Notes under the pieces: generated by a model | What the model was told of the DNA's origin: nothing | The model's input: only the letters and a program-made list of their open reading frames with translations | Databases searched by the model: none | Source of the DNA: Trueperaceae bacterium | GTDB lineage: Bacteria > Deinococcota > Deinococci > Deinococcales > Trueperaceae | Assembly: GCA_965213925.1 (NCBI GenBank) | Contig: OZ243927.1 | Location: forward strand, 3,392,001 to 3,456,000 | Length of the DNA stretch: 64,000 nt | Reading direction: 5' to 3' | Position numbers and translations under genes: made by a program | Shown: positions 8,266 to 60,184 of the stretch, in pieces | How the letters are laid out: the number at the start of each line of letters is the position of its first letter | Position numbering within the stretch: position 1 is the stretch's first letter

Positions 8266-9648
<1,383 letters not shown>

Positions 9649-14715: not shown

Positions 14716-16263
14716 ATGGCTAAAGACCAAGGCGAGCCTAGCGCGCTTCGTAACAGAACTAGACAGGAAGTTCGCCTGTCAGAACTTGTCATCGCCCTCT
14801 CCTTGGCCGCCGACCTGGGGATGGGTCAGCCTTTGGGATGGGGGCTTCGGGGCTGTCTATTGGCGATGCACGCTGCCGAGGGGCTCGAGCTAACGCAGCA
14901 CGAACGCAAGGACCTCTATTACCTGTCGCTCCTTCACTACCTGGGCTGTACCACCGACGCCCACCTGTCAGCTCGTCTGTTCGGGCAGGACCGCCGCGCG
15001 ATGCAACACTTTGCCCTCACCCACATGGGTGCCTACCCTATCTTGGAGCAAGCGCGGCCTTCGGAGGTTTCTCGCCCTGTACTGCCCGAGACGCTGCGCG
15101 ACTCCGCTCGGGCCCGCTGCGAGGTCGCCATGCACCTAGCCCGCTGGTGCGACTTCGGCCAGGGGGTCCAAACGGGTTTGTGGCAACTCTTCGAAAGGTG
15201 GGACGGCAGCGGCCTCCCCAACGGGCTTGCGGGTGAGCAGCTTAGCTTACCTGTGCGTATCGTACAGATCGCCCAGGATGCCGAGACCTTTTTTCGCCTC
15301 GAGGGGCTAGCCGGGGTGAAGCGGCTGCTCGCCGAGCGCTCAGGTAAGGGGTATGACCCGCGGTTAGCGGCGCACTTTTTAGACCAAGCGGAGGCGCTTT
15401 TTGCGAGCTTGGAGGTCACCTCGTTACCTCAAGCGGTGCAAGAGGCAGAGCCGGAGGCTATTAGGCGCTTACCTTCCGAGCAGTGCCAAAAGACCTTAGA
15501 GGCGATGGCGGACTTTGCCGATATGAAATCGCCTTTTACCGCCGGGCACGCGCGCGGGGTCGCTGACCTAGCAGCTCGAGCCGCGACCGAAGCGGCTTTG
15601 GATGACACCCAGGTGACGACGATAAAATGGGCGGGCCTCGTTCACGACCTAGGGCGCGTGCGTATCGACGCCGCCATTTTGGATAAGCCGGCGCGTCTCA
15701 GCGATAGCGACTGGGAAGAGGTCCGGTTGCACCCTTACTACACGGAGCGGGTGCTGGCGCGCTGTGAGCCTCTAAGCGACGTTACTCAGCTCGCCGCCCT
15801 CCACCATGAGCGCCTAGACGGCTCGGGCTACCACCGGGGGGTGCCAGCCACGCTCCAGCCGTTCGGGGCGCGGCTGCTTGCGGCGGCGGACGCTTACCAC
15901 GCCATGAACGAAGCCAGGGCCCACCGTGAGGCGCTGCGCCGGGGCGAAGCCGCCGCCGCGCTCAAAGCCGAGGTCAAAGCGGGTAAGCTCGACCCCGAGG
16001 CGGTGGCGTGCGTACTCAAAGCCGCCGGTCATAGGGTGCGCCAGCGCAACCGCGACCTTCCCGGAGGGCTGAGCCCACGTCAAGTGGAGGTGCTGCGCCT
16101 CATCGCCAGAGGTCACACCGATAAAGAAGTGGCTGAACGCTTAAGCATCTCACCGAAAACCGTCGGGCACCACGTGCAGCATATCTACGGCAAGCTCGAG
16201 GTGTCTACCCGGGCCGCCGCGACGCTTTTCGCCGCACAACATCACTTGATCCGCGACCTATAG
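14716..16263 (+). CDS. Tandem HD/HD-GYP-like domains plus C-terminal LuxR HTH regulator
   Basis: ERWDGSGLP, HDLG, HHERLDGSGYH, LSPRQVEVLRL..G.TDKEVA..ISPKTV..H...IYGKL. Confidence 0.9.
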   Translation: MAKDQGEPSALRNRTRQEVRLSELVIALSLAADLGMGQPLGWGLRGCLLAMHAAEGLELTQHERKDLYYLSLLHYLGCTTDAHLSARLFGQDRRAMQHFALTHMGAYPILEQARPSEVSRPVLPETLRDSARARCEVAMHLARWCDFGQGVQTGLWQLFERWDGSGLPNGLAGEQLSLPVRIVQIAQDAETFFRLEGLAGVKRLLAERSGKGYDPRLAAHFLDQAEALFASLEVTSLPQAVQEAEPEAIRRLPSEQCQKTLEAMADFADMKSPFTAGHARGVADLAARAATEAALDDTQVTTIKWAGLVHDLGRVRIDAAILDKPARLSDSDWEEVRLHPYYTERVLARCEPLSDVTQLAALHHERLDGSGYHRGVPATLQPFGARLLAAADAYHAMNEARAHREALRRGEAAAALKAEVKAGKLDPEAVACVLKAAGHRVRQRNRDLPGGLSPRQVEVLRLIARGHTDKEVAERLSISPKTVGHHVQHIYGKLEVSTRAAATLFAAQHHLIRDL

Positions 16264-20953: not shown

Positions 20954-21475
20954 ATGATCTTCTTCAACTCCTGGGCAGATATAGGGCGCGTGCTGCTGGT
21001 CGGTCCGCTCGCCTACCTCACCCTCCTGCTGATGCTGCGCGTTTCGGGCAAAAGGACGCTCTCGAAGCTCAACGCCTTCGACTTCATCGTCACGGTCGCT
21101 TTGGGCTCGGTGCTGGCGAGCACGCTCTTGAGTAAAGATGTGGCGCTCGCCGAGAGCGTCGCGGCGCTGGCTGTACTCATCGTCGGTCAGTTCATCATCA
21201 CCTACTTGTCGGTGCGTTCAAAACGCTTCCAGGACTTCGTCAAGGGGGAGCCAACGCTTCTCTATTACAAACAGCGCTTCTTAGAGGCGCAAATGAGGCG
21301 TGCGCGTGTGACGAAAGAGGAGGTGAGGGCGGCGGTGCGGGCGAGCGGGCAGGGGTCGCTCGAGCAGGTCGGGGCGGTGGTGCTCGAGACAGATGGCAGC
21401 TTGTCGGCGGTAGGAGATTCAGAGAGCAGCGCTAGCGGGTGGCTTGCGAACGTCGCTGAGCCTGGAGAGGCTTGA
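20954..21475 (+). CDS. DUF421 / YetF family membrane protein
   Basis: GKRTLSKLNAFDFIVTVALGS, VLETDGSLS; TACACT-N6-ATG leaderless-type start. Confidence 0.9.
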   Translation: MIFFNSWADIGRVLLVGPLAYLTLLLMLRVSGKRTLSKLNAFDFIVTVALGSVLASTLLSKDVALAESVAALAVLIVGQFIITYLSVRSKRFQDFVKGEPTLLYYKQRFLEAQMRRARVTKEEVRAAVRASGQGSLEQVGAVVLETDGSLSAVGDSESSASGWLANVAEPGEA

Positions 21476-21496
21476 GCCGGAAACTTTGTAAGTCTT

Positions 21497-21526
21497 CTAT
21501 GCGAGTTATGTGCGTCTGCTGCAGAA
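21497..21526. repeat. Degenerate module-boundary repeat (2 nt short in the core)
   Basis: CTATGCGAGTTAT-GTGC-GTCTGCTGCAGAA. Confidence 0.6.
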
Positions 21527-21642
21527 TGGTGCATCCGGTTAATCTCGCGCACGCTTCGGAAGTGGCTTTCCGTATTGCCAGCGCAAACCACTGAGAAAAC
21601 ACCTTGCAGCGGACTTAAAAGATGCACCAACAGCGACCTAGA
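21521..21642 (+). repeat. ~120-bp inverted repeat, left copy (partner at 25346-25465)
   Basis: GCAGAATGGTGCATCCGGTTAATCTCGCGCAC...AAGATGCACCAA aligns with the reverse complement of 25346-25465. Confidence 0.85.
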
Positions 21643-21766
21643 AGTAGCACGTTGGAAAATTCAACGATTCGAACTCGTATCCTGCAAGGACCGTCCGCTT
21701 ATTCAAGGGGTGGGCAAGCCCCAATTGTATTCACCTCGTGGAGAAAGCAAAAAACTCGACCTCCGC

Positions 21767-23824
21767 TCAGTCTGAGACCGCCACCGGCGCCGACTCGGTG
21801 GGGCGGTAGCGTGCCACCATCCGCGACCAAATCAGGTTGCTCTGGATGCGCGCCTCCAGCACAGCGAGGTAACGCTCGAGCCCCTCATCCGCCGGGCCGA
21901 ACGAAGGTCGCTTCAGCCGCTCCTCGCGGAAGTCCGCGACAGCCTGGTGGTACATCTGCGCCGCCCGGCTCATGGACTCGGGAAGGGAGCCCCCATATTC
22001 TCTCTGTAGTGCGAGCACAAGGTTGTGAACGTCGTCGTGGTGCAGCTCTTTGTTTAGTGAAAAGAGGTCGTTCGCCCAGCACACCGCCTGGTCCGCGAGC
22101 AGATTCAGCCGGGTCACGGTTTGATGCTCGCGCACTTCCTGTGGCAACCAGACGCCGTCAGCGAGTTCGATAAAGGCGGCGTCGATCGAGAGGCCCCCGG
22201 TCACGGGATGCAGGATCAAGTAGCTCGCTAACTCGGGCGGGCTATTCCGAGTCCGGTTCGACGCTTCCCAGACCGTCGCCGCCATGAACGCTTTAACGGT
22301 CGCGCAGAAGCGGGCAAACCACTCGGGTGTGCCGTGCACACGCAGCCGCGCGCCCAGGTCGAAGAGGAGCTGCGCTACCGGTCCCTCGCGCTCGTCGGGC
22401 GGCGTCCCTGCCAGAACCGTAGTCAAGCGGGCGTTCATCCTTTGCAAACGTGCGGGATCGTGACCCACCTTGTCCTCGTCGCAGAGGTCGTCGTAAAAGA
22501 ACATCCACAAATACCAGTCGGCGATGAGTTGTTTGACCTCTTCGCTCGCCTCCCGGTGGATAGTGCTCGCAAGATAGCCGGGGCGGATCGCGGCGACGAG
22601 ACGGTAGAGGTCGCGCTTCGAGGCGATGTCGAAACGCGCCAGCCACCTTACCGCGCCTCGGTCGAGGTGTTCGCTCAGCTCGGCGTCGTAGACGTCGTCA
22701 ACATCGGGCAGTGACGTCAGTTCAGGCGGCGGTAGACGCTCGACATATTTCCTCGTAAACGCCTCGACGCGGTTGCGCCCACCCGCTTTGCTCGCGTAGA
22801 GGGCTTCGTCGGCGCGTCTGATTAACGTGTCCGGCGTGTCCCCTGCCTGACAACTTGCGACGCCGAAGCTGGCCGTAATCCCCCCTATCTCGAAGGGGTA
22901 GTCCGCCACTTGGCGGCGCAGGCGTTCGGCTAAGACGCTCGCGCCTTCAAGTCCGGTGTGAGGCGCGAGGACGAGAAACTCCTCGCCGCCCCAGCGTCCG
23001 AATAGGTCGGTGTCGCGCACGAACGTCGCTGCTAGGTCCGCGACTTTGATCAGCACCTTGTCCCCCGCCTCATGACCGTGAATATCGTTGACCTGTTTGA
23101 AACGGTCGATGTCGACGAGGATGAGCGAGAAGGGGTTACCGTAGCGCTCGCCCACCGCGAACGCTTGAGCGAGGGAAGACTCGAGGGCGCGCCGGTTCGG
23201 CTTGCCTGTCAGTACGTCGAGGTAGGCGAGTCGCTCCATCTGAGCGAGCTGCGTCTGTAACGCTGCGATCTTCGTGCGCGAGAAGGAATAGCTGTAGAGC
23301 ACCCCCGAGTAGAGGGCGTAACTGAGATAGAACTCGGTCAACCCGCTAGGCAGTACGCTCGGAACGCCCCCGGAGGCTGCGAAGGCAGCCGCGAGCCCCG
23401 CTACCAGTGCGAGCGCGTAAATCGACGCTGTGTAGCGCAGCGCCGAGCGTTGCTCGAATAGTATATAGGCCAGTATGAAGATAGTCGGCGACCAGACGTA
23501 GAGCTGGACGAGCTCCTGTTGGGCGCTCGCCTGAGCGTAACTCAGATAGACGCTGGTCGCGAACTTGCCGATAAAAACAGCCGCCAGCACGCTGTAGACG
23601 AAATTCTCGATGTAAAGAAGCGCGGGCTTGCGGAGGTGAACGGCGAGGCTCGCGGCGAGTAGCAGTGCCGCTAAAACGGGTAAGACCAGCGCGTCGAAGG
23701 CGGCAGGCTGCCCGTCCTGGTAATCAACCCAATAGGTCGCCGCGACCGCGACGCTCAGCAGGGGCAGAACGACACGGTAAATCTGGCGCTTGATCGTCTG
23801 GTGGGTGGGTGAGGTCGTGTCCAT
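21767..23824 (-). CDS. Membrane diguanylate cyclase (GGEEF) fused to a C-terminal class I terpene synthase domain
   Basis: About 6 N-terminal TM helices; DVLTGKPNRR, DIDRFKQVND.HGH..GD, RDTD-x5-GGEEF; then FFYDDLCDE (DDxxD), NDLFSLNKE (NSE/DTE), HNLV, WSRMVARY (WxxxxxRY) in one continuous frame. Confidence 0.9.
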   Translation of the reverse strand: MDTTSPTHQTIKRQIYRVVLPLLSVAVAATYWVDYQDGQPAAFDALVLPVLAALLLAASLAVHLRKPALLYIENFVYSVLAAVFIGKFATSVYLSYAQASAQQELVQLYVWSPTIFILAYILFEQRSALRYTASIYALALVAGLAAAFAASGGVPSVLPSGLTEFYLSYALYSGVLYSYSFSRTKIAALQTQLAQMERLAYLDVLTGKPNRRALESSLAQAFAVGERYGNPFSLILVDIDRFKQVNDIHGHEAGDKVLIKVADLAATFVRDTDLFGRWGGEEFLVLAPHTGLEGASVLAERLRRQVADYPFEIGGITASFGVASCQAGDTPDTLIRRADEALYASKAGGRNRVEAFTRKYVERLPPPELTSLPDVDDVYDAELSEHLDRGAVRWLARFDIASKRDLYRLVAAIRPGYLASTIHREASEEVKQLIADWYLWMFFYDDLCDEDKVGHDPARLQRMNARLTTVLAGTPPDEREGPVAQLLFDLGARLRVHGTPEWFARFCATVKAFMAATVWEASNRTRNSPPELASYLILHPVTGGLSIDAAFIELADGVWLPQEVREHQTVTRLNLLADQAVCWANDLFSLNKELHHDDVHNLVLALQREYGGSLPESMSRAAQMYHQAVADFREERLKRPSFGPADEGLERYLAVLEARIQSNLIWSRMVARYRPTESAPVAVSD

Positions 23825-23918
23825 CTAAGCTCACGCTATCAAGCAAGGATATCCGGGAGCGTTAAATTTTGCGCACCTTCACCTGCGGGTACATGGTAAA
23901 AGCGCGAGGGGAGGACGG

Positions 23919-25283
23919 ATGCTCAGCTCAAAACGACAAGGTAATGTGCAAGGGCCGGGGGGCGTTCGCGCACTCGGGGTACTGCCTCGACTGCTCAGAC
24001 ACGACATGCTCAGCGTGCTCGAAGAGGCTAGAGAAGGTTACGGCGACCTCTTCAAGCTCCGCGTTGGCCCCGCCTTGCTGGTCATCGCCAGCCACCCGGA
24101 GCACGCCCGGCACATCTTACAGACGGCGAGTGCAAACTACACTAAAGGGCGGGTCTACGAGCCCGGTCGCCGCTGGATGATCGGCGACGGACTCATCGCT
24201 AGCACGGGCGAGCACTGGCTTCGCCAGCGGCGCATGATGCAGCCACACTTCCACCGCCAGCAGTTGGCGGGTCTCACGACCCTGATGACGGACGCGATTG
24301 GTGAAGCACTGGCGAGTTGGGAGCCTCGAGAAGAGGGAGCGACGCTCCACCTCGACAAGGCGACTGCGCGGCTCTCCATCAAGGTCATCACGCGCACGCT
24401 CTTCGGCAGCGGAGCGTTGAGCGAGGCGGAGATGGACGAGGTCGGGGCGGCGTTTTTGACGTTGATGCGGCAACTCACCCCACGTCTCTTCCTCTACTTT
24501 TTGCCGGAACAGCTTCCGCTGCCCGGCGACCGAGCACTCCGCAGAGTGAGACGAACAGTTGACGCGGCGATCTATAAACTCATCGCGGAGCGGCGGCGTA
24601 CACCTGGCGGGAACGACCTGCTCGCCATGCTCATGGGCGCGGTAGATAGGGAAGGAGCGGGTGAAGGGGGTGGCATGAGCGACGCGCAGTTGCGCAACGA
24701 AGTCGCCACCCTGTTCATCGCCGGATATGACACCGTTTCGACGGGTCTGACCTGGACCTGGCACCTCCTCAGTGAGCATCCCAGGGTGTTGGCGCGTCTC
24801 GAGGAGGAGATTGAGACAGCGTTGGGAAAACGAACACCGACCTTCGCTGACTTGGGAGCGCTGCCCTACACGCGCAACGTGTTGCGGGAGAGCCTGCGCG
24901 TGCGTCCGCCCGTCGGTATGGTGCCCCGCACGCTCAAAGCGGACGATGAACTGGATGGGCACCTTCTGCGTAAAGGCACGACGGTGTGGCTCTATATCTA
25001 CGGCATTCATCACCACGTCGACTTCTGGGACGCCCCGGAGGACTTCGTACCGGAGCGCTTCGAGTCCGACCAGAAACACCGCTTCGCCTATCTCCCCTTT
25101 ATCGCCGGACCTCGGCAGTGTGTCGGCAACGAATTCGCCATGACGGAGATGGCGCTGGCGCTGGTGATGACCGTTCAGCGCTACGAGGTTACAACTCTGA
25201 ACGACCCGCCCGCACTACCGCTACTCACCACGGTGCTCAAGCCTCGGTACGGGGTGCAAGCGAGGGTTCGCTCGCGAGCGTGA
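23919..25283 (+). CDS. Cytochrome P450
   Basis: I-helix AGYDT, K-helix ESLR, PERF, heme motif PFIAGPRQCVG. Confidence 0.96.
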   Translation: MLSSKRQGNVQGPGGVRALGVLPRLLRHDMLSVLEEAREGYGDLFKLRVGPALLVIASHPEHARHILQTASANYTKGRVYEPGRRWMIGDGLIASTGEHWLRQRRMMQPHFHRQQLAGLTTLMTDAIGEALASWEPREEGATLHLDKATARLSIKVITRTLFGSGALSEAEMDEVGAAFLTLMRQLTPRLFLYFLPEQLPLPGDRALRRVRRTVDAAIYKLIAERRRTPGGNDLLAMLMGAVDREGAGEGGGMSDAQLRNEVATLFIAGYDTVSTGLTWTWHLLSEHPRVLARLEEEIETALGKRTPTFADLGALPYTRNVLRESLRVRPPVGMVPRTLKADDELDGHLLRKGTTVWLYIYGIHHHVDFWDAPEDFVPERFESDQKHRFAYLPFIAGPRQCVGNEFAMTEMALALVMTVQRYEVTTLNDPPALPLLTTVLKPRYGVQARVRSRA

Positions 25284-25345
25284 GATAGAGACCCATTCGC
25301 GTAGCGTTCAGCGATGCTCATGCAAAAACTCCGACTACGATGAAG

Positions 25346-25465
25346 CTAGACATTCTTGGTCCATCTTGAAAGTTCGTCGCAGAATGCCTATTCGACGCTC
25401 AGGGCTGATGACGTAGAAAGCTATTTTCAAAGTGTGCGCGAGATTTACCGGATGCACCATTCTGC
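25346..25465 (-). repeat. ~120-bp inverted repeat, right copy
   Basis: Reverse complement reads GCAGAATGGTGCATCCGGTAAATCTCGCGCAC...AAGATGGACCAA. Confidence 0.85.
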
Positions 25466-25491
25466 GGCGAACGCGCGCATTTCACGCAGAA
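25460..25491. repeat. 32-bp palindromic module-boundary repeat (A|B)
   Basis: TTCTGCGGCGAAC-GCGCGC-ATTTCACGCAGAA. Confidence 0.88.
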
Positions 25492-25509
25492 GCTCATGCC
25501 GAAGCCCTC

Positions 25510-26673
25510 TTAGTCTCGAGCCTCCGAACTCACCGCCCGCCCGACCTCGCGCGGCTGGAAGACCAGAACGCCCAGCATGAGCAGCGCACTCAGCCCAAAC
25601 AGGAGGGGCATTCCGAGCGCCGGGACGAGCGCCCCGAATACGGGCGGTCCCACCAACTGCCCCGCCGCGATGAGTAGAAAGGTTGCTCCTAGCCCGGTCG
25701 AGGGGCGCGAGCGGAACACGTTCACGCTCCAAACTGCCATGAGCCCGGTGATGAGAAAGAAGCCTGCCCCGAAGAGCGCAGCGGAGATGAAAGCTGGGGC
25801 GATACTCGAAGGGTTTAGCCCTAGCAGGGCTGTAGCGAGCGAGATGACGACCCCAGTAGCGGTGAAGAAGGTTCGCATCCCGAAGCGCGCGATCAGGTCG
25901 CCTGCTGCTACACCGACCATACCGGCTGCGCCGACGAGAACCCAGAAGAGCTGACCGACACTTGGAGGCAGCTGACCTACGGACACCAGCAGGTCGACTG
26001 CGAAGGTCCAGTAGACCGAGGCGACGAAGCCGAGCCCGAAAGCCGCCGCGAACAGGGGTCCAGAATGGGGGCAGACGAACCAGCTAAGACGTAATTTTGG
26101 CACGCTCACGGCCTCCACCGGTCTTGCCGGGAGCACCCACAAGTTCCATGCAGTCACGAGTAGGGCGAAGACAGCGAAGCATAACCACGCGGTGCGCCAA
26201 CTGCCGCTCAGAAAGAGCGCCACAGGTCCAGAGAGCAAGACGCCGAAGCTCGTGCCCGCGTTAATCCAGGAAAGCGCCCGGTCTTGCTCGCGCTCAGGCA
26301 CCTTCTGCGCCACCGCCTCGGGCATTGCCGGATAGACCCAACCCGAGCCGGTACCCGCCAGTAGCACGCCAACTGCCAAGACCCAGCCACTCGATGCGAG
26401 CGCGACCAGCCCCATGCCCAGGCAGGCGCAGAGTCCACCGATGAGGACGAGTAGCCTAGGCCCGGTGCGACTCGCCACGGCTGAGCTGACCGCTGTGGCG
26501 AGCAGGTAGCCCACGTACGAGCCGCTGGCGATAAGACCAAGCGTGGCAGGGCTCAGTCCTAAAGCCGCGCGGATATCAGGTAAGAACAGACCGTAGCTGT
26601 AGCGAGCCAGCCCGTAGGTGGCCGCGACGATCGCGACGCCCGCGTAGGTGAGTTGCTGCTGGGGGAGTTTCAT
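25510..26673 (-). CDS. MFS transporter (YbfB/YjiJ-like)
   Basis: About 12 TM helices, YGLARYSYGLFLP N-terminal motif. Confidence 0.88.
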   Translation of the reverse strand: MKLPQQQLTYAGVAIVAATYGLARYSYGLFLPDIRAALGLSPATLGLIASGSYVGYLLATAVSSAVASRTGPRLLVLIGGLCACLGMGLVALASSGWVLAVGVLLAGTGSGWVYPAMPEAVAQKVPEREQDRALSWINAGTSFGVLLSGPVALFLSGSWRTAWLCFAVFALLVTAWNLWVLPARPVEAVSVPKLRLSWFVCPHSGPLFAAAFGLGFVASVYWTFAVDLLVSVGQLPPSVGQLFWVLVGAAGMVGVAAGDLIARFGMRTFFTATGVVISLATALLGLNPSSIAPAFISAALFGAGFFLITGLMAVWSVNVFRSRPSTGLGATFLLIAAGQLVGPPVFGALVPALGMPLLFGLSALLMLGVLVFQPREVGRAVSSEARD

Positions 26674-27093: not shown

Positions 27094-28038
27094 CTACGCC
27101 GCCTCTCTGTTACCGAAGGTTAGAAAGCCTATTCCCAGCGCAATAAGAACACCTCCTATAGCCAGACCTTGCGGCATCGCCTCCCCAAGTAGGAGCACCG
27201 CGATAGGCACGCCGACCACCGCGCCGACCGAGCCGAGCAAGCTGAGATACACTGGTCCCCCGCGCTTCTGAAGTACGAAGAATAAGAGGAATTGGAGCGA
27301 AAAGGTCGCGACCTGAGCGAGGATGAGCAGGGCGGGCGCGGCGCGATCAAGGGGAACGGCGAGAGAGAAGCCTCCTGGGTTGCTGGGGATAACTCCTGCA
27401 AACACGCCAAAAACGAGAAGCATAAGCCCGGACACCGCGAGCATCCCAGGCGCGAGTTCGTCCGGAGCCGCACCCTCCGGCCAGCGCGCCGTCCGGTAGA
27501 TGTTGCCGACAGCGAGCAAAACCGGACCTAGCAGGGTCGCTGCGACCCAGAGCGGGTCTGCGTTCGGGTCGGAGAGCTTGAAGATAGCGAGCACAGCAGC
27601 ACCGCCTAAGGCGAGTACAACACCGGTCGCGCTGCGAAGTTGTAGACGCTCCATGCCGAGCAGCAGCGCCCCAAGGTAGGTAAAGAGCGGCGGGAAAGCG
27701 ATGGCGAGCGCCACGAAGCCAGCCCCGATGCGGGGCACGGCAGCGAAGAAAAGGAGATTAGGTACAGCGACGCTGATCAGCCCCGAGATGACGAAGTACT
27801 CGGTGGTGCGGCTGGTAAGTTGCGGAAGCCGGTGACGCGCTGCACCGACACCTACGAGCACGGCTGCGGCTCCGACCACCGACCAGGTGAGGAAGGCTAG
27901 CGGGTCGAGCCCAGACTGAGCAGCAAGTTTCGCGAGATTGGTCGAGACCCCGAGGAGTGCACCCGTGGCGAGCAGGAGAGCAAGCGGCATTAGCCATACG
28001 TAACGGGGCGGTGGTTTAGAAATTGAAATGTGAGACAT
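27094..28038 (-). CDS. DMT/EamA family transporter
   Basis: About 10 TM helices in two EamA repeats; GPVYLSLLG, LLLGE. Confidence 0.88.
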   Translation of the reverse strand: MSHISISKPPPRYVWLMPLALLLATGALLGVSTNLAKLAAQSGLDPLAFLTWSVVGAAAVLVGVGAARHRLPQLTSRTTEYFVISGLISVAVPNLLFFAAVPRIGAGFVALAIAFPPLFTYLGALLLGMERLQLRSATGVVLALGGAAVLAIFKLSDPNADPLWVAATLLGPVLLAVGNIYRTARWPEGAAPDELAPGMLAVSGLMLLVFGVFAGVIPSNPGGFSLAVPLDRAAPALLILAQVATFSLQFLLFFVLQKRGGPVYLSLLGSVGAVVGVPIAVLLLGEAMPQGLAIGGVLIALGIGFLTFGNREAA

Positions 28039-28077
28039 AGTGGTTCCTCTACAGACTCGGTGCAATACGCTTAGGGT

Positions 28078-32472: not shown

Positions 32473-33270
32473 TCAGGCTTGTTGGCTGGGCGCGTTTTTG
32501 CCTATAGCATCGAGCGGTAACATCTCGGTCAGACGCGCTGACTCGGTTAAACTGCTCTTGAGGTACTGTCTCCCCGCCAGGTAAACGAGCAGCCACTGCA
32601 CCGACGCGAGGGCGTTGTAGATCATGTCGATGTTGTAAGACTCGGGCAAACGCACGTAAAATAGATCGGCGAGAAACCACGCGAGGGTCGCGCCGCTCAG
32701 CAGTAAAAAGGGTCGGGTGAGGCGCAGCTCGGCGCGTGAGAACCAGAGCGCCGCCGCAGGCAACACCAGCAAGGCGCTGAAGTACGTTTTGGCGTTGTCC
32801 GCGACCGATATACCTAATTCGAAGTCCAGGATGACGCCGAGCACCAACGCGACGACAAAGGTGACTGAGGAAACCAGTAAGATGAGCTGCGCGATAAGCT
32901 CGATGAAGATCGCGCCTCTGAGCCGCCTATAGACGATAAAGATGGCGAGCGACAAGGCGTACGCCCACGGCGCGCATTCGAGCGTCCACAGTGTCGCGCC
33001 CGCTAGCTCTAGCGCGAGTGGCATCTCGCCCGTGACGCTCCCGTAGACCCAAGCCAAGTTTGCGAAGGCAGTGAGCAGCGCCGCGAACGAGAGCGCGTAG
33101 AGTCCGCGCTGCCAGCGCAGCCCCTGCGCCGCCTTGCCAAAACGAAAAAGCGCCAGGGAGCTCAGCGCCATGAGCAGCGTATAGCTCACCTCCCCGAAGA
33201 GCGAAGGTAACAGGCCAGCCATCACCAGAAGACAAAGACCGACAACTAATCCGTAAGCAGCGATCATCAC
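32473..33270 (-). CDS. Multi-pass membrane hypothetical protein coupled to the GGDEF-EAL gene
   Basis: About 8 hydrophobic segments; GTGA overlap with the upstream stop. Confidence 0.7.
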   Translation of the reverse strand: MMIAAYGLVVGLCLLVMAGLLPSLFGEVSYTLLMALSSLALFRFGKAAQGLRWQRGLYALSFAALLTAFANLAWVYGSVTGEMPLALELAGATLWTLECAPWAYALSLAIFIVYRRLRGAIFIELIAQLILLVSSVTFVVALVLGVILDFELGISVADNAKTYFSALLVLPAAALWFSRAELRLTRPFLLLSGATLAWFLADLFYVRLPESYNIDMIYNALASVQWLLVYLAGRQYLKSSLTESARLTEMLPLDAIGKNAPSQQA

Positions 33271-35957
33271 GCCACCCTTTCTGCGGGCTTTCCCGCTCTG
33301 ACCAATTGAGGCGTTTCGGCTAACGTCAACCGGACGACCTCACCTAGAGTTGTGGGCTTGGAAAAGAGGTAGCCCTGCCCGTAAGGGCAGCCGAAGCCGC
33401 GTAAGACTTCGAGCTCGCGTGCGTGTTCGATCCCCTCCGCGACCAGGTCGAGCGACAGCGCCTCGGCGAGCGAGACGATGGTCCTGACGATCTCGAGCGT
33501 GCGCCTGTCCTCGCCCATCTTCTGAATAAAGGCGCGGTCCACCTTGAGGGTGTCGATCGGCAGGTCCTGGATGTAGGTCAGCGACGAGTAGCCGGTGCCG
33601 AAGTCGTCCATAACGATCTTGACGCCTAAAGCTTTGAGCTCCTCTAGGGGGGCGCGCGCACCGCCGGTGCTCTCGATCACGGCAGTCTCGGTGATCTCGA
33701 GCTTGAGCTGAGCGGGGTCGACCCCCGTCTCGAGCAAGACCGCCCTGACGTCGGAGACGAGGTGGGGGTGCAGCAACTGCTTGGCGGAGAGGTTCACGCT
33801 CATGGTAAAAGCGTCCCCGAGTTCGGGGTGCGCAGCGAGCGCGCTGCACGCCTCCTTGAGCACCCACAGCCCGAGCGGGACGATTAGACCGGAGTCCTCT
33901 GTGGCGGGGATAAACTCGGCGGGCGAGACGAAGCCGCGCTCGGGGTGACGCCAGCGCAAGAGCGCCTCTGCCCCGACGACAGCGCCGCTACCTAGCGCGA
34001 CGATGGGCTGGTAGTCCAGGTAGAAGTCGCCGCGCTCCAGCGCGTAGCGCAGGTCGGTCTCGAGGCGGTGGGCGGCGACCGCGGCGGCGAGCATCTGCTC
34101 GTCGTAGTAGAGGTGGGGCGCGCCGCTACGCTTCGCTTCGTACATGGCGACATCGGCGTTTTCTAGCGCTGTGTCAGGACCCGCGCAGCCGAGCACATCC
34201 TTGACGAGGCCGATGCTGAGACTTGGGAAGAGCGTTTCACCGGCCAAGTCGAAGGGCTCGGCGATCCGCCGCTCGAGCCGCGCGACCGCCGCCTCGAGAC
34301 TCTCCGCTGACGTTCCGTTCAACAGCACGACGAACTCGTCGCCGCCGAGCCGCGCGACGAGGTCGTCGCCCCGTACGCAGCTCTGCAGCCTGGCGGCGAT
34401 TTCCCTTAGCAGCAGGTCCCCGACCTTGTGCCCCAGGCTGTCGTTGACGAGTTTGAAGCGGTTAACATCCATAAAGAGGAGGCTCACGCTCTCCCCGCCG
34501 CCACACTCGAATAGCTGCTCCAGGCGCGCCTGGAGCATCAGCCGGTTGGGCAAGCCCGTGAGCGGGTCGAAGACGCCCCGCATCGAGATGTCCGTGAGCG
34601 AGCCCGCGACGCGTTCGGGAACACCCGCGGCGTTACACACCGACTTGCCGCGCACCAGCACCCAGAGGTAGTCGCCGCCCTTCGTCCTGAGCCGGTGCTC
34701 GTCCTCGAAGAACTCGCTTCTGCCCGCGATGTGCTCTTCCAGCTTCCGCCGCACGCGCGGCTCATCGTCTGGATGCACACGCACTTGCCACGTGTCGGTC
34801 GTGCCGACCCTCTCGCCCTCGTCGAAGCCGAGTAGCTCGAACCAGCGCGAAGAGTAGAGCACCTCGCCGCTGCCGAGGTCCCAGTCCCAGAGCCCGTCGT
34901 TGACCCCTTCGGCGACCAGGCTGTAGCGCCTCTCGCTCTGCGTGAGCTGGCAAAAGGTCGTCTGCAAGGCTTCTAACATGCCGTTGATGTAGCCGCCGAG
35001 CTGCGCGATCTCGTCAACGCCCTCGATCTCGATACGCCCGCCCAGATCGCCCTTTCGCGTGATCTGCTCGACCCAGCGGCTGAGACGCGTCAAGCGTGAG
35101 AGGAGCAGGCGTTCGACGAAGACGAGGGTCAGCACGCCGAAAGCGAGGCTGACGGTTATGAGGAGCGCCAGGAGCGCGCCCGCGCCCCGGGCGCTGCTAC
35201 GGTAGAGCGCCCGGGGATGGTTGATCGCCACCTTTATGGGGACGTCCGCGGTGAGGCTCGGCAGGGCGGCGCTCAGCCGGATGTCGTTGCCGCCTATCTC
35301 GGCCGGCGTTTCGGCGGAGGCGGTCGCGGCCTCGCCCCACAGCAGCTCGGCGTTTACGAGCGTATCCGCCGTTAGCTGCTCCATCAAGGCGTCGTCGAGG
35401 TAGCGCACGGCTAAAAAGGCCCCGTTGACTGCGCCGCTGACCTCGTCCGAGACCGGCGCGCTGACGACTTGCGCCGCACCCTTCGGGAGATACAGGTAGC
35501 CCGCTAGATCCACCTCGGCGTCGGGTGTGCTGAAGAGGTTTGGCATCTTGAGGAGCGCCTCGAGCGTGACTTCGTCTAGGGGTACGGCGTCTTCAAGCGC
35601 AGCGTCATACGCCTCCGCGTAGACGGGCTGGGCTTCTAAATCGGTGATGAGCAGGGCGTCGATATCGAACGTTTCGAAAACGTAAGCGCCCAGGTTCTCG
35701 TCGCGGTAGGTGGCGCTCCTCGCCTCCACAAAGTCATAGGTTTCGTCCCAGAACGCCCAGTCGTGAACAAAGGTTTGCGTGGTCGAGAGCGCATTTTGTA
35801 AATTTCTCTCGGCGCGCGCCAAGTCCCGCTCCGCCGCACGCACCTCCGCCTCGGACACGGACTTGACAGAAAACGCCCAGATAATCGCGGCGAGCGTCAC
35901 TACGAGCCCGGCGAGCACCACGCTGACCGCGCCGCCAATATGGAGCCGCAAGCTCAC
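33267..35957 (-). CDS. CHASE4-HAMP-PAS-GGDEF-EAL c-di-GMP signalling protein
   Basis: DWAFWDETYDFV (CHASE4), DEIAQLG (HAMP), DGLWDWD/VHPDD (PAS), RGDD-x5-GGDEF, EALLRW, DDFGTGYSSL. Confidence 0.93.
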   Translation of the reverse strand: MSLRLHIGGAVSVVLAGLVVTLAAIIWAFSVKSVSEAEVRAAERDLARAERNLQNALSTTQTFVHDWAFWDETYDFVEARSATYRDENLGAYVFETFDIDALLITDLEAQPVYAEAYDAALEDAVPLDEVTLEALLKMPNLFSTPDAEVDLAGYLYLPKGAAQVVSAPVSDEVSGAVNGAFLAVRYLDDALMEQLTADTLVNAELLWGEAATASAETPAEIGGNDIRLSAALPSLTADVPIKVAINHPRALYRSSARGAGALLALLITVSLAFGVLTLVFVERLLLSRLTRLSRWVEQITRKGDLGGRIEIEGVDEIAQLGGYINGMLEALQTTFCQLTQSERRYSLVAEGVNDGLWDWDLGSGEVLYSSRWFELLGFDEGERVGTTDTWQVRVHPDDEPRVRRKLEEHIAGRSEFFEDEHRLRTKGGDYLWVLVRGKSVCNAAGVPERVAGSLTDISMRGVFDPLTGLPNRLMLQARLEQLFECGGGESVSLLFMDVNRFKLVNDSLGHKVGDLLLREIAARLQSCVRGDDLVARLGGDEFVVLLNGTSAESLEAAVARLERRIAEPFDLAGETLFPSLSIGLVKDVLGCAGPDTALENADVAMYEAKRSGAPHLYYDEQMLAAAVAAHRLETDLRYALERGDFYLDYQPIVALGSGAVVGAEALLRWRHPERGFVSPAEFIPATEDSGLIVPLGLWVLKEACSALAAHPELGDAFTMSVNLSAKQLLHPHLVSDVRAVLLETGVDPAQLKLEITETAVIESTGGARAPLEELKALGVKIVMDDFGTGYSSLTYIQDLPIDTLKVDRAFIQKMGEDRRTLEIVRTIVSLAEALSLDLVAEGIEHARELEVLRGFGCPYGQGYLFSKPTTLGEVVRLTLAETPQLVRAGKPAERVA

Positions 35958-36917: not shown

Positions 36918-37403
36918 ATGGCTGACGTCCTCACAGCCTGGCGACTTGTCAGACCTAAATATGGCAACCAGGCTGATGCTTTTAGCGGTGAAGGTTCGCG
37001 TCTCTTCGGTGGGCGTTGGAACTCGCCGGGTGTGCGTGTTACTTACGTCAGCTCGAGTCTGTCGCTCGCCACACTAGAGACGCTCGTCCACGCGGACAGG
37101 CGGCGCTTCGAGCGAGACTACGTCGCCTTCAAGCTCTACCTACCTGAAGCGCTCGTGCTCGAGCTGCGCAGTGAGGATTTGCCCGAGGAGTGGCGGGCGA
37201 GGGCCGTGAGCGAGGGCGCGAGGCAAGTTGGAGATGCGTGGCAAGCGGCGCAGGCGAGTGTCGCCTTGTCTGTACCTAGCGTAATCGTGCCTGCGGAGCG
37301 GAACTATCTGCTCAACCCTAGACACCCGCAGTTCAGCGAGCTAACGATTGAAGACCCGCAACCTTTTCGCTTCGACGCACGGCTCGCTGACAAAGGACGA
37401 TAA
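36918..37403 (+). CDS. RES-domain toxin (MbcT/ParT family)
   Basis: WRL, FSGEG...GGRWNSPG, LATLETLVH, VPSVIVP, NYLLNP.H; follows the Xre antitoxin. Confidence 0.92.
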   Translation: MADVLTAWRLVRPKYGNQADAFSGEGSRLFGGRWNSPGVRVTYVSSSLSLATLETLVHADRRRFERDYVAFKLYLPEALVLELRSEDLPEEWRARAVSEGARQVGDAWQAAQASVALSVPSVIVPAERNYLLNPRHPQFSELTIEDPQPFRFDARLADKGR

Positions 37404-37512: not shown

Positions 37513-39948
37513 GTAGGGTAGGATGCCAGCGAGCTGCCTATCAAAGATAGCGCTTTTCCAACATCCCCCCTCCGAACCCCGCATGACCGCTTTCCGTGTC
37601 ACGGGGCTCTCCAGTAATCTCAACATGAAAGTCCTTTCCCGTGGTAGTGCCCTTTATGGATGTCTTGGTGGCAGGTGAGGCAGACCACCAGCGTCTTGCG
37701 TCGGCGAGCCGACATCCTTTGCATCCATTCGGGCCGTGACTTACGCCCTCTTTGTTCAAGGTCTGCCAGTTTTCGGACGTGATGCACTTCGACGTGCTCC
37801 ACCGACCCACAAAGCTCACAGCTTTGCGCTAAAAGGCGGTCCACCACTTCATTACGCCCGTTCCAAATCTTACTGTTCTGGTTGTCGTCCAAGGCTACCC
37901 ATTTGTTCCACCGTAACGGGATGCCGCCAAAGTGGGTGATGAGTGGCTTCTTTTTAGGACCACGGTCCACTTTGACTTGAAGGACTTTATAGCTGCCCTC
38001 CTTGAGGTCGATGGTGGTGCGGTAGCGCCGATAGATTTTCTGGCAACTCGTCCTGAACTTATTCGCCAGCGTTTTCACTAGCGAGAGTTCTGTGACGCGC
38101 TTGAGTCGGCCCAGCGTGTGGAGGTTGTAGGCCATGCGGTAATACTGCACGACCCCGCGGTATTCCGCTTGATATTGGCTGACGATGCTGTAAGCATCGC
38201 TGCTGAGCCTTTGTGGGAGGTGAATGGGCTTGCCGCGTCGCATGTACTTGGCGCAGTGCGCTTTCATGACGTGCGACGGTACCCGGAGTCCGACGCTGCC
38301 GTTGATGCAGCGTTGTCCCCGGTGGTCGTGTTTATCGTCAGCGTGAAGAATGTGGACCTCATAGCCCAGGAAACGCGCTTTCTGCGTGCGCGCGTGGGTC
38401 AGCAGGGTCTTATCCTCGCTAAGCTCAAGCTTGAGTTCGTCGCGTAAGAAGGCGGCAATCTCTTGCTTGATAGCCACGGCCTCGTCTTTTGGCCCTTTCA
38501 GCCCCAGCAGAAAGTCATCGGCATACCTTTGGTACCACAATCGCCGGAAGTTCGGGTCATCGGGGTCGCGCGACGGCATTGTCTGGGCCTGCTGGCTCAG
38601 TTGCCGCGCGGTCTCCCAGTTCCCTGCTTTCCGAGCGTCGTGAGCGGCTTTGGCGATGGCGACATACGGGGGGTAGGTCTTGCGGCGTTCGCCGCGTGTG
38701 TAAGCTGGTATCAGTTCGTGCTCGACAAACTTGTCCAGCCTGTCCAGAACCAGGTTGGTGAGGATTGGACCGACAATCGACCCTTGCGGCACACCGCTGT
38801 AGGTCTGGTGAAAGGTCCAGTTCTCCAGGTAGCCAGCTTCGAGCAGCCCCTTGATAAGCCGCAGGAAGCGGTTGTCGTGGAAGCTCTTCTGCAAGATGTT
38901 CAACAAGACATCGAAGTTAATCTTGTCGAAACACGAGCAGATATCTCCCTCGATAAACCACTTTGTACCTCGACCCTCTTGGGTGACTTTGCGCAAAGCT
39001 GTGTGGCATCCCCGTTTCGGTCGAAAGCCGTGAGAACGGTCGCTGAACCGCGGTTCATAATAGGCTTCCAGGATGGAGCGGATAACTTCTTGAAGAAGTT
39101 TGTCCGACCAGGAAGGCATCCCTAGAGGCCGCATCTTGCCATTCTTTTTGGGAATGTAACGGCGTCGTACCGGCGTCCACCGATACCGCTCTTGGCGTAG
39201 CGCCTCGATGATGGTATCAATTTTCGCTAGGGACATCCCGTCCACGGTTTCGTCCGAGGCACCTGGTGTCAGTGCGCCTTCGTTCTTGTAGAGCTTGGCG
39301 TAGGCGCGCAGGTAGAGGTCAGGCCGGTAGAGTAGGCGATACACCCTTTTAACCGGCAGGCCACGCTGGCCGCGTTCACGTAGGATGGTGAGTACCGTTT
39401 CGGCGGTTCGCATCTCGCGTACCTCACAGTTCCTTTCCATCATGATTACCTGGTCTCCTTCGCCCTGCGAACGGCTCTCCCGCTCTCCCTGGTGGGGCGT
39501 GACGCCCACGACTACTACGAGACCTCCGTTACCTTAGGACTCGCGTCCCTTAGGCAATCCCGTGTTTCGTCACTGAGGAACGTGCTAGAACGACTTAGGC
39601 TCGCCACTCATAGCCTTGGATGAACTCATTGTTCATCGCCCATCAAGCAGAGCGTCATTTGGACGAAACTTGAATCCAAATGTCCTGATGGCGTCGGTGT
39701 ACAGACGTGCTACCGACGGGTGTGCGTGACCACCGCTGGCTATTGGCGTTCAAACAATCCAGTCTTAGCCTTATCATTCAGGCGTTGCAGAGCCGCATCG
39801 TACACGTCTTCCTTTGCGCTCCGCTTTAATGCCATGCTCTTGTCCCCTCCCTCCTTTCGAGCTCAGGTTAGGCATCCGCCTCGGGGTCGTTTGCCCTGAA
39901 CCCCGGCCAACTCCGTTGGCAATTCACTCAATGCGCACCACGGCGCAC
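37513..39948 (-). mobile_element. Inner group II intron with intact RT/maturase/HNH ORF
   Basis: 5' end GTGCGCCG at 39948; domain V GAGCCCCGTGACACGGAAAGCGGTCATGCGGGGTTC and domain VI ending CCTACCCTAC at 37513. Confidence 0.92.
37620..39413 (-). CDS. ltrA: Group II intron reverse transcriptase/maturase with HNH endonuclease (ML-lineage-like)
   Basis: RPLGMPSWSDK, SHGFRP, GVPQGS, RYADDF, FLGY, C-terminal CELC..EVHH..CLTCH; likely start ATG 39413. Confidence 0.95.
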   Translation of the reverse strand: MRTAETVLTILRERGQRGLPVKRVYRLLYRPDLYLRAYAKLYKNEGALTPGASDETVDGMSLAKIDTIIEALRQERYRWTPVRRRYIPKKNGKMRPLGMPSWSDKLLQEVIRSILEAYYEPRFSDRSHGFRPKRGCHTALRKVTQEGRGTKWFIEGDICSCFDKINFDVLLNILQKSFHDNRFLRLIKGLLEAGYLENWTFHQTYSGVPQGSIVGPILTNLVLDRLDKFVEHELIPAYTRGERRKTYPPYVAIAKAAHDARKAGNWETARQLSQQAQTMPSRDPDDPNFRRLWYQRYADDFLLGLKGPKDEAVAIKQEIAAFLRDELKLELSEDKTLLTHARTQKARFLGYEVHILHADDKHDHRGQRCINGSVGLRVPSHVMKAHCAKYMRRGKPIHLPQRLSSDAYSIVSQYQAEYRGVVQYYRMAYNLHTLGRLKRVTELSLVKTLANKFRTSCQKIYRRYRTTIDLKEGSYKVLQVKVDRGPKKKPLITHFGGIPLRWNKWVALDDNQNSKIWNGRNEVVDRLLAQSCELCGSVEHVEVHHVRKLADLEQRGRKSRPEWMQRMSARRRKTLVVCLTCHQDIHKGHYHGKGLSC

Positions 39949-39983
39949 ACTTTCACCGCACACGGCTCAAGCCAATCACGAAG

Positions 39984-40118
39984 CTACCGCGATAAGCTCG
40001 TAGTAGCCCTGAAGATTCGCCCTCTCAGATTGCGAACCCGCCAATTGACAGCTCGCCAGTTCACAGCGTGCCAGTCCGTAGGTCCTTCGGTTTCGTTTGC
40101 AGAGCTTCGGGCTCGCAT
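39984..40118 (-). pseudogene. 44-aa N-terminal remnant of the outer intron's RT
   Basis: MRARSSANETEGPTDWHAVNWRAVNWRVRNLRGRIFRATTSLSR*; the W..VNW....VRNL..RIFRA pattern is the RT N-terminal motif of CL-type intron proteins; it sits directly before domain V. Confidence 0.8.
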
Positions 40119-41060
40119 CTAACTTCCCCTTAGTTGGCAACCTTCAGAACATCTCTCTAGGAGATTGACCAGTCCCACGTCAGCACCCTTTCGGGTTGAG
40201 TATCGGCTCTATCTAGCCCCTTATGATTTCGGGTCGCCTTTCGGCGGCTAGCCTTCGCTTCTTGGGACCTCCTATGCCCGCTGGAGCGTTCGGCGTTCCT
40301 TACGGTTCGCTTACCTGCAACAGGACTCCAACGGGGTTTCCGTGTTCCACTTGTGTGAGCTGCGACCGGGTTAGGCGTGCTCTCTACTCCGGGGTCATGG
40401 TGTCCTCGTGCAGAACGCGCGTACTCTCTGCACCTGTTGAGGCGAGATACCTTATCCTTAGCCTCGACCCGACCATGCCTTATCAACCATCCTTCGACAA
40501 ACCGAACTAACGGAGCTTTGACCGAGCATTCACGTTCGTTCGCCTTACCGGTCTTTCCCTCACCCGAGTCTCTACGATGGTTTAGATTCTCTTAGGCTTT
40601 ACCTCCAGCTTCACACCTTGCCATTACTGGCAACGCATGTGGAAGTCGGGAATGAGCCTGGACACTGGCTCAGAGTTCTTTTCCTCCTTCCTAACTCACT
40701 CACTTCAAGCGACTTCACGTCGCACACGCGCGCGTTAGTCGCACAATGGTTCGTGTGTTGAAAAAGGGTTAAGGGGAAGGTCGAATAACGATGTAATACG
40801 GCTTTCGGGTAACTCCCCTAGGGATTACCTCGAGCGTAGCGAGTAGAAAGAACTACGGATTTCAATGAGTGCGTTCGGACTTCGGTGAAACCCACTGCTC
40901 GTCACTTTGTGGTGTCATGTTGATAGAGCACATAAGAAGCTCAGCTGAGCGCTAGTTCGGCTACAAAGATACTTGTGGTTGTACTTAGCCACATGACGGT
41001 ATACTCTGGGCATCCAAGGTTTGAAGACAAGCCTAGTTCTTGCCGAGCGGAGGGAGTCCA

Positions 41061-43970: not shown

Positions 43971-45493
43971 GCCTGCAAAGCAGCCGCGGGCTTCCCAAAA
44001 AGCGCCGAGGAGGACATCGTCTGAAGGATATCGCTAATATCGCCTTCGGTGGTGGCGGCGCAAAAGGCGTTGCCCACGTAGGGGCGCTCGCTGGACTGGA
44101 GAAAGCGGGTGTGCTTATTTACGGAGACTATAGCTACCGTGAGGGTCACCTTCTCAAACGCCTTAGTAGACTCGTACCGGGGACAATCGGACTCTCGGGC
44201 ACAAGCATCGGTTCGCTCATTGCCGCGCTCACTGCATCGGGTTACACCTCAGCAGAGTTGAAGGCTAAGCTGCTCGACAGCAACGCAATGCTTAAAGCTG
44301 TAGTGAACTTCCAAAGTGCTGCTAGCGCGGGTATACCTACATTGGATCAGAACTTCGCCTACGATCACAAGCCTGCTAAGCGGGAGGGCGCGATATGGGG
44401 TGTTAAAAAATCAGCGCCTCTGACTGTCGATACCCGTAGGCAATACATACGGAAAGGAGGCTGGGTCTTTTTTGGCACACGAGGCAAAGTGGTAGCTAGG
44501 AACGTTGGCTTCTTCGCCCTTAGGTATGCCGTGGAGTCGGAAATACATGATGTGTTAGCTGAACTCTTCCGTGAGAGCTCGCGGCGCGCGCCAAGGGGCG
44601 GTGCGAACGGACTATCTACCTTAGATAAGAACAGGTTGCAAAAACTTGCAGGTGACGCTATACCTGAAACAGTTTATAGATACCTCGGTTTCTTTAAGGG
44701 GCAATCTTTAGTACAACTCGTGAGTCAGCTCATCTATTCAAAGCTGAGGCCTGGTGAGCGTGAGCTGATTCATGAGGACAACCGTATGTATTTCGGAGTA
44801 AAACGGATTGAGGACTTATCAGAAGCCCAGCGAATGAGGGTGTCGTTCGCCCGCCATAAAGAGTGCTTTGGCATCAACCTGAGACTCACCGGGGCCAACC
44901 TCGAGACACAAATGAGCCACGTGTTTAGCGCCCGCACTACTCCTACGATGGCAGTAGCGGACGCCGTACGCATCTCGGCGAGCTTCCCACTCCTATTTAG
45001 ACCGACTCTTATCTCCTTTGAGAAAGCCGAAAAGATGTCTGAGGCAGAGTCTTGGGCGCTGAGCCCCGAAGAGCTTACGGGCATATGGATCGACGGCGGC
45101 ATATACAATAACGTACCTTGGGACGTGTTCGACACCGGCTTAACTCTTGGCTTAGCGCTGGGTGCAACGCCTGAGGAGAAGCGTAGTCCCGCCTGGCAAA
45201 CTGTCCATGACCCGTTCTCTTACCCACCTTTTGAAGAGGATGAAGAGGACCGCCTCAACGCACTACTAGAAACCTATGCGCACAGCAAACTCCTGGACGA
45301 TACGTCGCGGCTCAACAATAGTTACGGTAACGTTAAGTATAGTCGGATTCGCTTAGACGCAACTCCCATTGATACACTCGATATAGCGGGGTATCACAAC
45401 CTCCCACTCCGAGAGCGAACGGCTTTGCTGAATCGCAACCAGACTATTGTTTCGTCACACCTAAAAAAATTTACCTCTGTCGCCCAGCGGTAA
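43967..45493 (+). CDS. Patatin-like phospholipase
   Basis: GGGGAKG oxyanion loop, GTSIG nucleophile, AVRISASFP, DGG catalytic Asp; GTGA overlap with the upstream gene. Confidence 0.9.
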   Translation: MSLQSSRGLPKKRRGGHRLKDIANIAFGGGGAKGVAHVGALAGLEKAGVLIYGDYSYREGHLLKRLSRLVPGTIGLSGTSIGSLIAALTASGYTSAELKAKLLDSNAMLKAVVNFQSAASAGIPTLDQNFAYDHKPAKREGAIWGVKKSAPLTVDTRRQYIRKGGWVFFGTRGKVVARNVGFFALRYAVESEIHDVLAELFRESSRRAPRGGANGLSTLDKNRLQKLAGDAIPETVYRYLGFFKGQSLVQLVSQLIYSKLRPGERELIHEDNRMYFGVKRIEDLSEAQRMRVSFARHKECFGINLRLTGANLETQMSHVFSARTTPTMAVADAVRISASFPLLFRPTLISFEKAEKMSEAESWALSPEELTGIWIDGGIYNNVPWDVFDTGLTLGLALGATPEEKRSPAWQTVHDPFSYPPFEEDEEDRLNALLETYAHSKLLDDTSRLNNSYGNVKYSRIRLDATPIDTLDIAGYHNLPLRERTALLNRNQTIVSSHLKKFTSVAQR

Positions 45494-59887: not shown

Positions 59888-59973
59888 CTCATCACTTTAC
59901 ATGTATATGCAAGTTTCTGTCAATCGTGTTCATTGAGATAGTCGAGCGAGGTGTATGTGTGAACTTAGATTTC

Positions 59974-60005
59974 TTCTGCGACGAACGCGCGCGTTCGCCG
60001 CAGAA
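59974..60005. repeat. 32-bp palindromic module-boundary repeat (A|A)
   Basis: TTCTGCGACGAAC-GCGCGC-GTTCGCCGCAGAA. Confidence 0.92.
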
Positions 60006-60184
60006 GCACCGAGTTTGTTGGAGACACGTTCTGCAAGCTTTTTCAGTCTGGATATCTCCATGCGCTCGCATAACTATTTGAACTCCACTTTAGAAAGATG
60101 GAATTCTTTTTAGAACAGGAACTCGTTGGAGTTCAAGAGTATTCGCAAGTAAGTTTCGGGTGTTGAGTTTGCTTGAAAATGTGG

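Follow-up and report, generated by a model that had tools for sequence, protein, structure and literature searches.

A conserved membrane-anchored fusion of a GGDEF domain and a class I terpene synthase domain in Deinococcota

This analysis concerns one gene of a Trueperaceae bacterium (assembly GCA_965213925.1, contig OZ243927.1), located in a stretch of 64,000 nucleotides (positions 3,392,001 to 3,456,000 of the forward strand; the window, to whose first letter all coordinates below refer). The gene (21767..23824, minus strand) begins with ATG, is open to its stop codon with zero internal stops, and encodes a protein of 685 amino acids (aa) composed, in this order, of six transmembrane (TM) helices, a stalk helix, a GGDEF domain, a short linker and a complete class I terpene synthase. 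The corresponding segments, all on the minus strand, are: the six-helix membrane domain (residues 1-190; 23255..23824); the GGDEF diguanylate cyclase domain (residues 196-355; 22760..23239); a linker of about 8-9 residues delimited by comparison with standalone relatives (residues 356-363; 22736..22759); and the class I terpene synthase alpha domain (residues 364-676; 21797..22735). A first-pass annotation, made from the letters of this DNA, had described a single uninterrupted 685-aa frame with about six TM helices, and both parts of that description held, the helices being agreed by hydropathy and by AlphaFold2.

Both soluble domains were assigned by Pfam, by NCBIfam and by fold matches. The Pfam GGDEF model (PF00990) matched residues 200-352 (E 2.1e-42, 145.1 bits against a cut-off of 23.8) and Terpene_syn_C_2 (PF19086) matched residues 436-631 (E 7.9e-44, 150.2 bits, cut-off 23.7); TIGR00254 scored 142.6 bits (cut-off 37.4), and the NCBIfam alignments spanned residues ~153-361 for the diguanylate cyclase models and 385-680 for the sesquiterpene synthase models. 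Hydropathy of the N-terminal domain gave clear peaks near residues 15-33, 46-64, 68-94, 105-123 and 132-150, the sixth TM segment being weak in the window protein (P0001) and clear in its relatives; AlphaFold2 placed helices at 6-36, 42-63, 69-95, 100-122, 125-150 and 160-201, the last of which continues as a stalk into the GGDEF domain. Residues 1-199 had zero Pfam matches at E 0.01 or better, MASE models included; the scores of 0.91 for MASE2 and 0.89 for MASE6/7 obtained from language-model features are leads only. An open reading frame (ORF) of 183 aa (21622-22173, plus strand) overlaps the 3' end of the fusion gene in antisense orientation, has no Pfam family and is most likely spurious.

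The motifs listed in the first-pass annotation (GGEEF with an intact RxxD I-site, a short linker, DDLCD, NDLFSLNKE and WSRMVARY) were all read directly at the places where it had put them. In the GGDEF half, the I-site R270-D-T-D273 is encoded at 23006-23017 and, five residues past RDTD, G279GEEF283 at 22976-22990, both on the minus strand. The metal- and guanine-binding residues D238/D240, N246 and D255 are present and align to those of IsPadC and PleD; the match to IsPadC (5llw) reached 1.1e-35 with a near-identical active-site stretch, PleD was matched as well, and the stretch RDTDxFGRWGGEEFL is common to this half and to active cyclases. The model of this half superposed on DgcB (6ttr, a coiled-coil-GGDEF protein; target-normalised TM-score 0.91). 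The GGDEF half is a predicted canonical, product-inhibitable diguanylate cyclase, expected to synthesise cyclic di-GMP (c-di-GMP). It shares with IsPadC (5llw), PleD (1w25), DgcB (6ttr) and the MASE-GGDEF proteins (AdrA/DgcC) the GGEEF signature, the RxxD five residues upstream and NDxxGHxxGD, and with membrane or coiled-coil diguanylate cyclases the stalk helix entering the GGDEF domain. None of these known cyclases, unlike the fusion, has a biosynthetic enzyme after its GGDEF domain, and the resemblance of the six-helix domain to MASE-type sensors is one of language-model features only. Assignment to the Hypr-GGDEF group, which makes cyclic GMP-AMP (cGAMP) and is told apart by the specificity aspartate, was rejected, that residue (D255) being kept. 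Two other genes of c-di-GMP type occur in the window: one for a CHASE4-HAMP-PAS-GGDEF-EAL protein (896 aa; 33267-35957, minus strand) and one for an HD_5 (HD-GYP-like) domain fused to a LuxR/GerE helix-turn-helix (515 aa; 14716-16263, plus strand).

The synthase half carries the aspartate-rich motif D445DLCD449 (codons 22478-22492), the NSE motif N585DLFSLNKE593 (22046-22072) and the RY pair (residues 672-673, within W666SRMVARY673), all on the minus strand. Further residues kept, according to positional rules for class I synthases given in PMC5082573 and PMC8450962, are N601 (8 after the NSE motif), W666 (6 before RY) and the salt-bridge pair R505/E553. Its best solved relative is the (+)-T-muurolol synthase of Roseiflexus castenholzii (9hqd; E 1.9e-52, 182 bits), with a fold match (9hr0, Foldseek) at a target-normalised TM-score of 0.90 and a root-mean-square deviation of 1.6-1.8 Å over 291 columns; it is followed by 10-epi-cubebol, 1-epi-cubenol, selinadiene and epi-isozizaene synthases. 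As these nearest relatives are sesquiterpene synthases, farnesyl diphosphate (FPP) is the likely substrate. The resemblance to the (+)-T-muurolol synthase (9hqd/9hqi; WP_012119179; PMC5082573) includes the unusual DDxCD motif, the NSE triad, the RY pair, the alpha fold and a spacing of 46 residues between the pyrophosphate-sensor position and the NSE motif; the Roseiflexus enzyme is a soluble, standalone protein of ~330 aa, whereas the synthase studied here follows a GGDEF domain at the C-terminal end of a membrane protein.

The fused architecture recurs in other genomes. A word-indexed protein search, in which 120 proteins were listed, returned at least 13 that contain both Pfam domains and cover 93-100% of the query (37-93% identity; 667-786 aa). 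An exhaustive search of 1.84 billion cluster representatives (150 proteins listed) gave five full-length matches (P0004, P0133, P0134, P0135, P0010) and one partial match (P0136), the rest covering one half only. With cluster members included, the family set comprises 24 sequences, the window protein and 23 relatives down to 35% identity. The I-site and GGEEF are kept in all 23 family sequences covering that region, DDxCD and the NSE motif in 24/24 each, and the RY pair in 13/14 rows of alignment A1; G279GEEF283, D238/D240, N246 and D255 are invariant in the alignment (14/14).

Such a frame could also arise from an artefact of assembly or annotation, or from recent accidental read-through between two adjacent genes, and some family members have the look of it: in one assembly the gene is split into P0543 (474 aa) and P0544 (177 aa), both on a single contig of 5,287 bases, and P0014 and P0136 end in divergent, unrelated C-terminal tails. 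Fragments also exist (P0125, P0126, P0540, P0546, P0547); these, together with the aberrant and split copies and P0542 (from the same species as P0135), were left out of alignment A2 and of the trees. Against such an origin stand 20 further intact full-length fusions, each a single fused frame of 667-731 aa, spread over many contigs and four clades, the presence of the exact window protein on 2 contigs, and the congruence of the two halves described below. Homologues always encoded as two genes had been named in the first-pass annotation as the sign of a recent accidental fusion; the architecture search gave the reverse, all 20 intact full-length homologues being fused. By these comparisons the artefact or read-through explanation is already refuted for the family, and we give it practically no credence.

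The two halves have evolved together. All fusions fall on the same side of one branch of the TM-GGDEF tree (42 rows), which has a support of 97 in the Shimodaira-Hasegawa-like approximate likelihood-ratio test (SH-aLRT). The synthase tree (30 rows) requires two changes for them, a single clade not being rejected by the approximately unbiased (AU) test (p 0.108). The two major groupings are identical in both trees, and the distance matrices of the halves correlate (Mantel r 0.976, a value reached by 0/2000 permutations; with 11 representatives, r 0.945). Identity between clades is 29-33% in the TM part, 50-54% in the GGDEF domain, 18-27% in the linker and 35-47% in the synthase. The one-sided branch, the unrejected synthase clade and the correlated halves argue for an old, single fusion event; judged from the sequences, the fusion is an old gene that has been kept whole in a conserved family, and no recent accident.

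The nearest relatives of each half (33-41% identity) are standalone TM-GGDEF proteins (~360 aa) and standalone terpene synthases (~320-345 aa), which, unlike the fusion, are encoded as separate genes. The former stop within ~10 residues of "GRNRVE" and the latter start within 5-25 residues of a "[LIV]PxLxCPF" segment; the gap between those two points in the fusions is ~9 residues, so that two complete proteins seem to have been joined end to start, at points matching the ends and starts of the standalone relatives. In the clade of the window there is an insertion of 3 residues, and the CPF portion of the synthase-side segment is lost. No split precursor arrangement was seen among 79 loci of standalone relatives, fetched from at least 599 matching stretches and containing GGDEF or TM-GGDEF genes only, none extending beyond query residue 373: neither the terpene synthase half nor the neighbouring cytochrome P450 described below matched within 8 kb in any of them (0/79, tblastn), and the GGDEF half, used as a positive control, gave 91 matches in the same loci. 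The whole fusion protein searched against plasmids (tblastn) found no place covering at least 80% of the query.

The linker meets the synthase at its N-terminal segment, and this position is relevant to an alternative reading of the GGDEF half: it could act mainly as a c-di-GMP receptor, binding the nucleotide through its I-site and gating the synthase, in which case terpenoid output would track cellular c-di-GMP. The invariance of RxxD and the attachment site of the linker are in keeping with such a role, as is PleD, whose domains are cross-linked by I-site-bound c-di-GMP. GGEEF and all the GTP- and metal-binding residues are invariant too, which is unexpected in a pure receptor, and we consider this alternative quite improbable.

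A cytochrome P450 gene (23919..25283, plus strand; 454 aa; Pfam p450, PF00067, E 9.4e-87, 292 bits) lies next to the fusion gene in divergent orientation. Its motifs are intact (the Cys-ligand loop FIAGPRQCVG, the ExxR motif as ESLR, and AGYDTVS in the I-helix), and the two genes have in common an intergenic region of 94 bp (23825..23918) with GGAGG before the P450 ATG, in agreement with the complete P450 that had been reported 94 bp away on the opposite strand. A scan of 21400-25600 for sigma-70 promoters gave 0 sites, such a scan being uninformative for this phylum. The best NCBIfam models were pentalenene oxygenase (229 bits, cut-off 800) and albaflavenone monooxygenase (209 bits, cut-off 700), both with scores below cut-off; the leading PDB matches were 7wzl (an unnamed P450), CYP97 carotenoid hydroxylases and CYP170A1 (3dbg, 3e-39). 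Pairing in relatives was judged by a proxy, namely a P450 homologue and a fusion on contigs of equal base count, among the best 120 of 234 P450 matches (E up to 0.001). By this proxy a P450 homologue of 77-95% identity accompanies the fusion in 7/7 clade-A contigs of at least 10 kb, that is, the window and contigs of 2,193,870, 4,393,473, 69,615, 44,751, 43,065 and 10,917 bases. The arrangement recalls pentalenene synthase with PtlI and epi-isozizaene synthase with CYP170A1, where a synthase likewise stands beside a P450 and to whose oxygenases the best P450 models belong. Known synthase-P450 pairs are co-directional operons of soluble proteins; the pair described here differs in its divergent genes, in its fused synthase and in a P450 far below both equivalog cut-offs. 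Two transporter genes follow downstream, MFS (25510-26673, minus strand, convergent with the P450 gene) and EamA (27094-28065, minus strand); either could export a terpenoid, and neither has a tie to the module.

Taken with the folds and models, these features suggest a bifunctional, membrane-anchored enzyme in which a single sensor controls both a diguanylate cyclase and the sesquiterpene synthase tethered to it, a reading that we hold to be about evenly balanced between right and wrong. The state of the six-helix membrane sensor would be passed through the continuous stalk helix to the diguanylate cyclase (2 GTP to c-di-GMP); tethered ~9 residues further on, a class I sesquiterpene synthase of the cadinane/T-muurolol-synthase type would convert FPP to a hydrophobic sesquiterpene at the membrane; and in the clade of the window the divergent P450 would probably oxidise that product. 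A second messenger inside the cell and a terpenoid able to diffuse or to dissolve in the membrane might in this way depend on a single sensor and a single dimerisation state. Cross-talk between the domains is plausible, given how short the tether to the N-terminal synthase segment is, and c-di-GMP may be functionally coupled to terpenoid synthesis. A more specific form of the proposal, in which one sensor emits c-di-GMP together with a P450-oxidised sesquiterpenoid that is either secreted or volatile and the two active sites are allosterically linked through the nine-residue tether (for example, with I-site-bound c-di-GMP or the dimer state of the cyclase gating closure of the synthase active site), seems to us rather unlikely; if true, it would be the first coupling in cis of cyclic-dinucleotide signalling to an enzyme of specialised metabolism.

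Several observations weigh against the bifunctional reading. The full-length AlphaFold2 model has a mean pLDDT of 90.6, with low values at residues 359-362, and a pTM of 0.57, so that the domain arrangement is not fixed; the soluble two-domain part (residues 196-685) folded alone gave a pTM of 0.76, a value compatible with a defined domain packing, of which it is a hint and no proof. No NCBIfam equivalog for a named product was reached by the synthase half, all scores lying far below cut-off and the best being selinadiene synthase (123 bits, cut-off 450). Neither a prenyl-diphosphate synthase nor a redox partner was found near the fusion gene in the Pfam scan of the window genes. The P450 partner, judged by the same proxy and among the same 120 of 234 matches, was present in 0/7 long contigs of the other clades, and the pairing therefore looks specific to the clade of the window; the P450-fusion pair put forward in the first-pass annotation thus appears to hold for the window and clade A rather than for the family as a whole. 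Separately from these points, the precedent cited there, of cyclic-nucleotide-binding proteins in terpene clusters, has been revised: EshA, the "Cnb" protein of the 2-methylisoborneol (2-MIB) clusters, was shown to be the shell of a Family 2B encapsulin without cyclic AMP (cAMP) binding (PMC11550324). The 2-MIB synthase/EshA clusters had likewise been proposed to link a nucleotide messenger to a volatile terpene, although EshA is a separate polypeptide without a cyclase.

The last of these adverse points is a substitution in the pyrophosphate sensor which, like the clade-limited P450, had not been noticed in the first-pass annotation. His539 (codon CAT, 22208-22210, minus strand), 46 residues before the NSE motif, aligns to Arg175 of the (+)-T-muurolol synthase. 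Arginine is found at this position in all 23 relatives (23/24 of the family), including those 93-96% identical to the window protein, and in 21/22 rows of alignment A3. Ten substitutions are private to the window protein compared with its three closest relatives, and only R539H strikes a column conserved in 19/19, by which decay of the synthase domain as a whole was rejected for this strain. The sensor arginine is reported to be important for catalysis by selinadiene synthase (PMC8450962); activity is possible in natural enzymes that lack it, in some cases at low output (PMC8450962, PMC10509563), and one natural enzyme lacking the sensor has low productivity (PMC10509563). Given that such enzymes can work, some of them poorly, impairment is predicted rather than loss: the synthase of the window is probably weakened by R539H, not necessarily dead. 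Together with its arginine-bearing relatives of 93-96% identity, this natural allele would allow what the pyrophosphate sensor does to be studied by direct comparison.

The tolerance of R539H in the window allele is also among the points in favour of a second alternative, in which the terpene synthase fold would be a non-enzymatic C-terminal sensor of isoprenoid diphosphates (the pool of FPP and geranylgeranyl diphosphate, GGPP) that tunes the diguanylate cyclase. A P450 partner traceable in one clade only, among the 120 of 234 matches, and a very short tether that suits allostery fit this alternative as well, and binding would depend on the metal and diphosphate motifs no less than catalysis would. 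Residues beyond diphosphate binding are, however, kept at ~35% identity (the aromatic residues W437, W440, F442, W519, W583 and W666, and N601), the synthase half is as near to proven enzymes as those are to one another, the sensor arginine is present in all family members except the window protein, and a P450 of terpene type adjoins the gene in the clade of the window. A role of the cyclase fold as a prenyl-diphosphate sensor might thus be entertained, and we regard it as unlikely.

The fusion constitutes a small family, seen so far in Deinococcota. One member (P0135) is from a cultured species, Deinococcus metalli (WP_184109956.1), where its database name is only "diguanylate cyclase", and another (P0547) is annotated "diguanylate cyclase [Deinococcota bacterium]"; the family also includes MDQ3399191.1. 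Genome-mining counts of terpene synthases or of c-di-GMP enzymes may consequently mislabel these proteins. GGDEF domains usually have sensors or c-di-GMP-degrading domains as partners, and bacterial class I terpene synthases are normally soluble and standalone. No published description of a GGDEF-terpene synthase fusion was found in full-text literature searches (subscription journals being outside their coverage), nor had the first-pass annotation known of a characterised one. Both domains are textbook; what is new is their combination, its membrane anchoring and its conservation, which make the family a testable case of how a second messenger might be connected with the making of terpenoids or with sensing of the isoprenoid pool.

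The fusion gene and the P450 gene are bracketed by an imperfect inverted repeat of 77 nucleotides (nt), identified by sequence comparison, with its left arm in the 3' intergenic region of the fusion gene (21494..21570) and its right arm in that of the P450 gene (25416..25492). The arms are 78% complementary, with a 32-nt core at 97% (21521-21552/25434-25465). A palindromic piece of ~34 nt at the right arm (25460-25493) recurs at no fewer than six other intergenic sites, near 7712, 13343, 16981, 30036, 48599 and 59973-60007, and is at least partly a dispersed element resembling repetitive extragenic palindromes (REP-like). No transposase is encoded within the inverted repeat, and the arms gave no sign of structured RNA (z-scores -0.94 and +0.49 against shuffled sequence; Rfam found nothing there). 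The repeat-bounded module proposed earlier is thus retained in so far as the repeat flanks both genes; its reading as a mobile cassette is not supported, part of the repeat being a dispersed element and the interval being free of a transposase.

Several other features were noted in the window. A group II intron (37513-40673, minus strand) is delimited by the Rfam matches Intron_gpII (37513-37611, 46 bits) and D1-D4-7 (40588-40673, 39 bits) and contains an ORF for a reverse transcriptase/maturase/HNH protein (37620-39509); it adjoins a gene for a RES-domain protein (36918-37403, plus strand; Pfam E 1.2e-33), of the kind that acts as toxin in RES-Xre pairs. A 976-aa ORF without a Pfam family overlaps by 4 bases the gene of a patatin-like phospholipase (43967-45493), both within 41040-45493 on the plus strand, possibly as a defence pair. 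A second, group-1-like sigma-70 paralogue (460 aa; 8266-9648, plus strand) is 56% identical to the apparent primary RpoD of the genome (P0434) and has close relatives at 89-92% identity.

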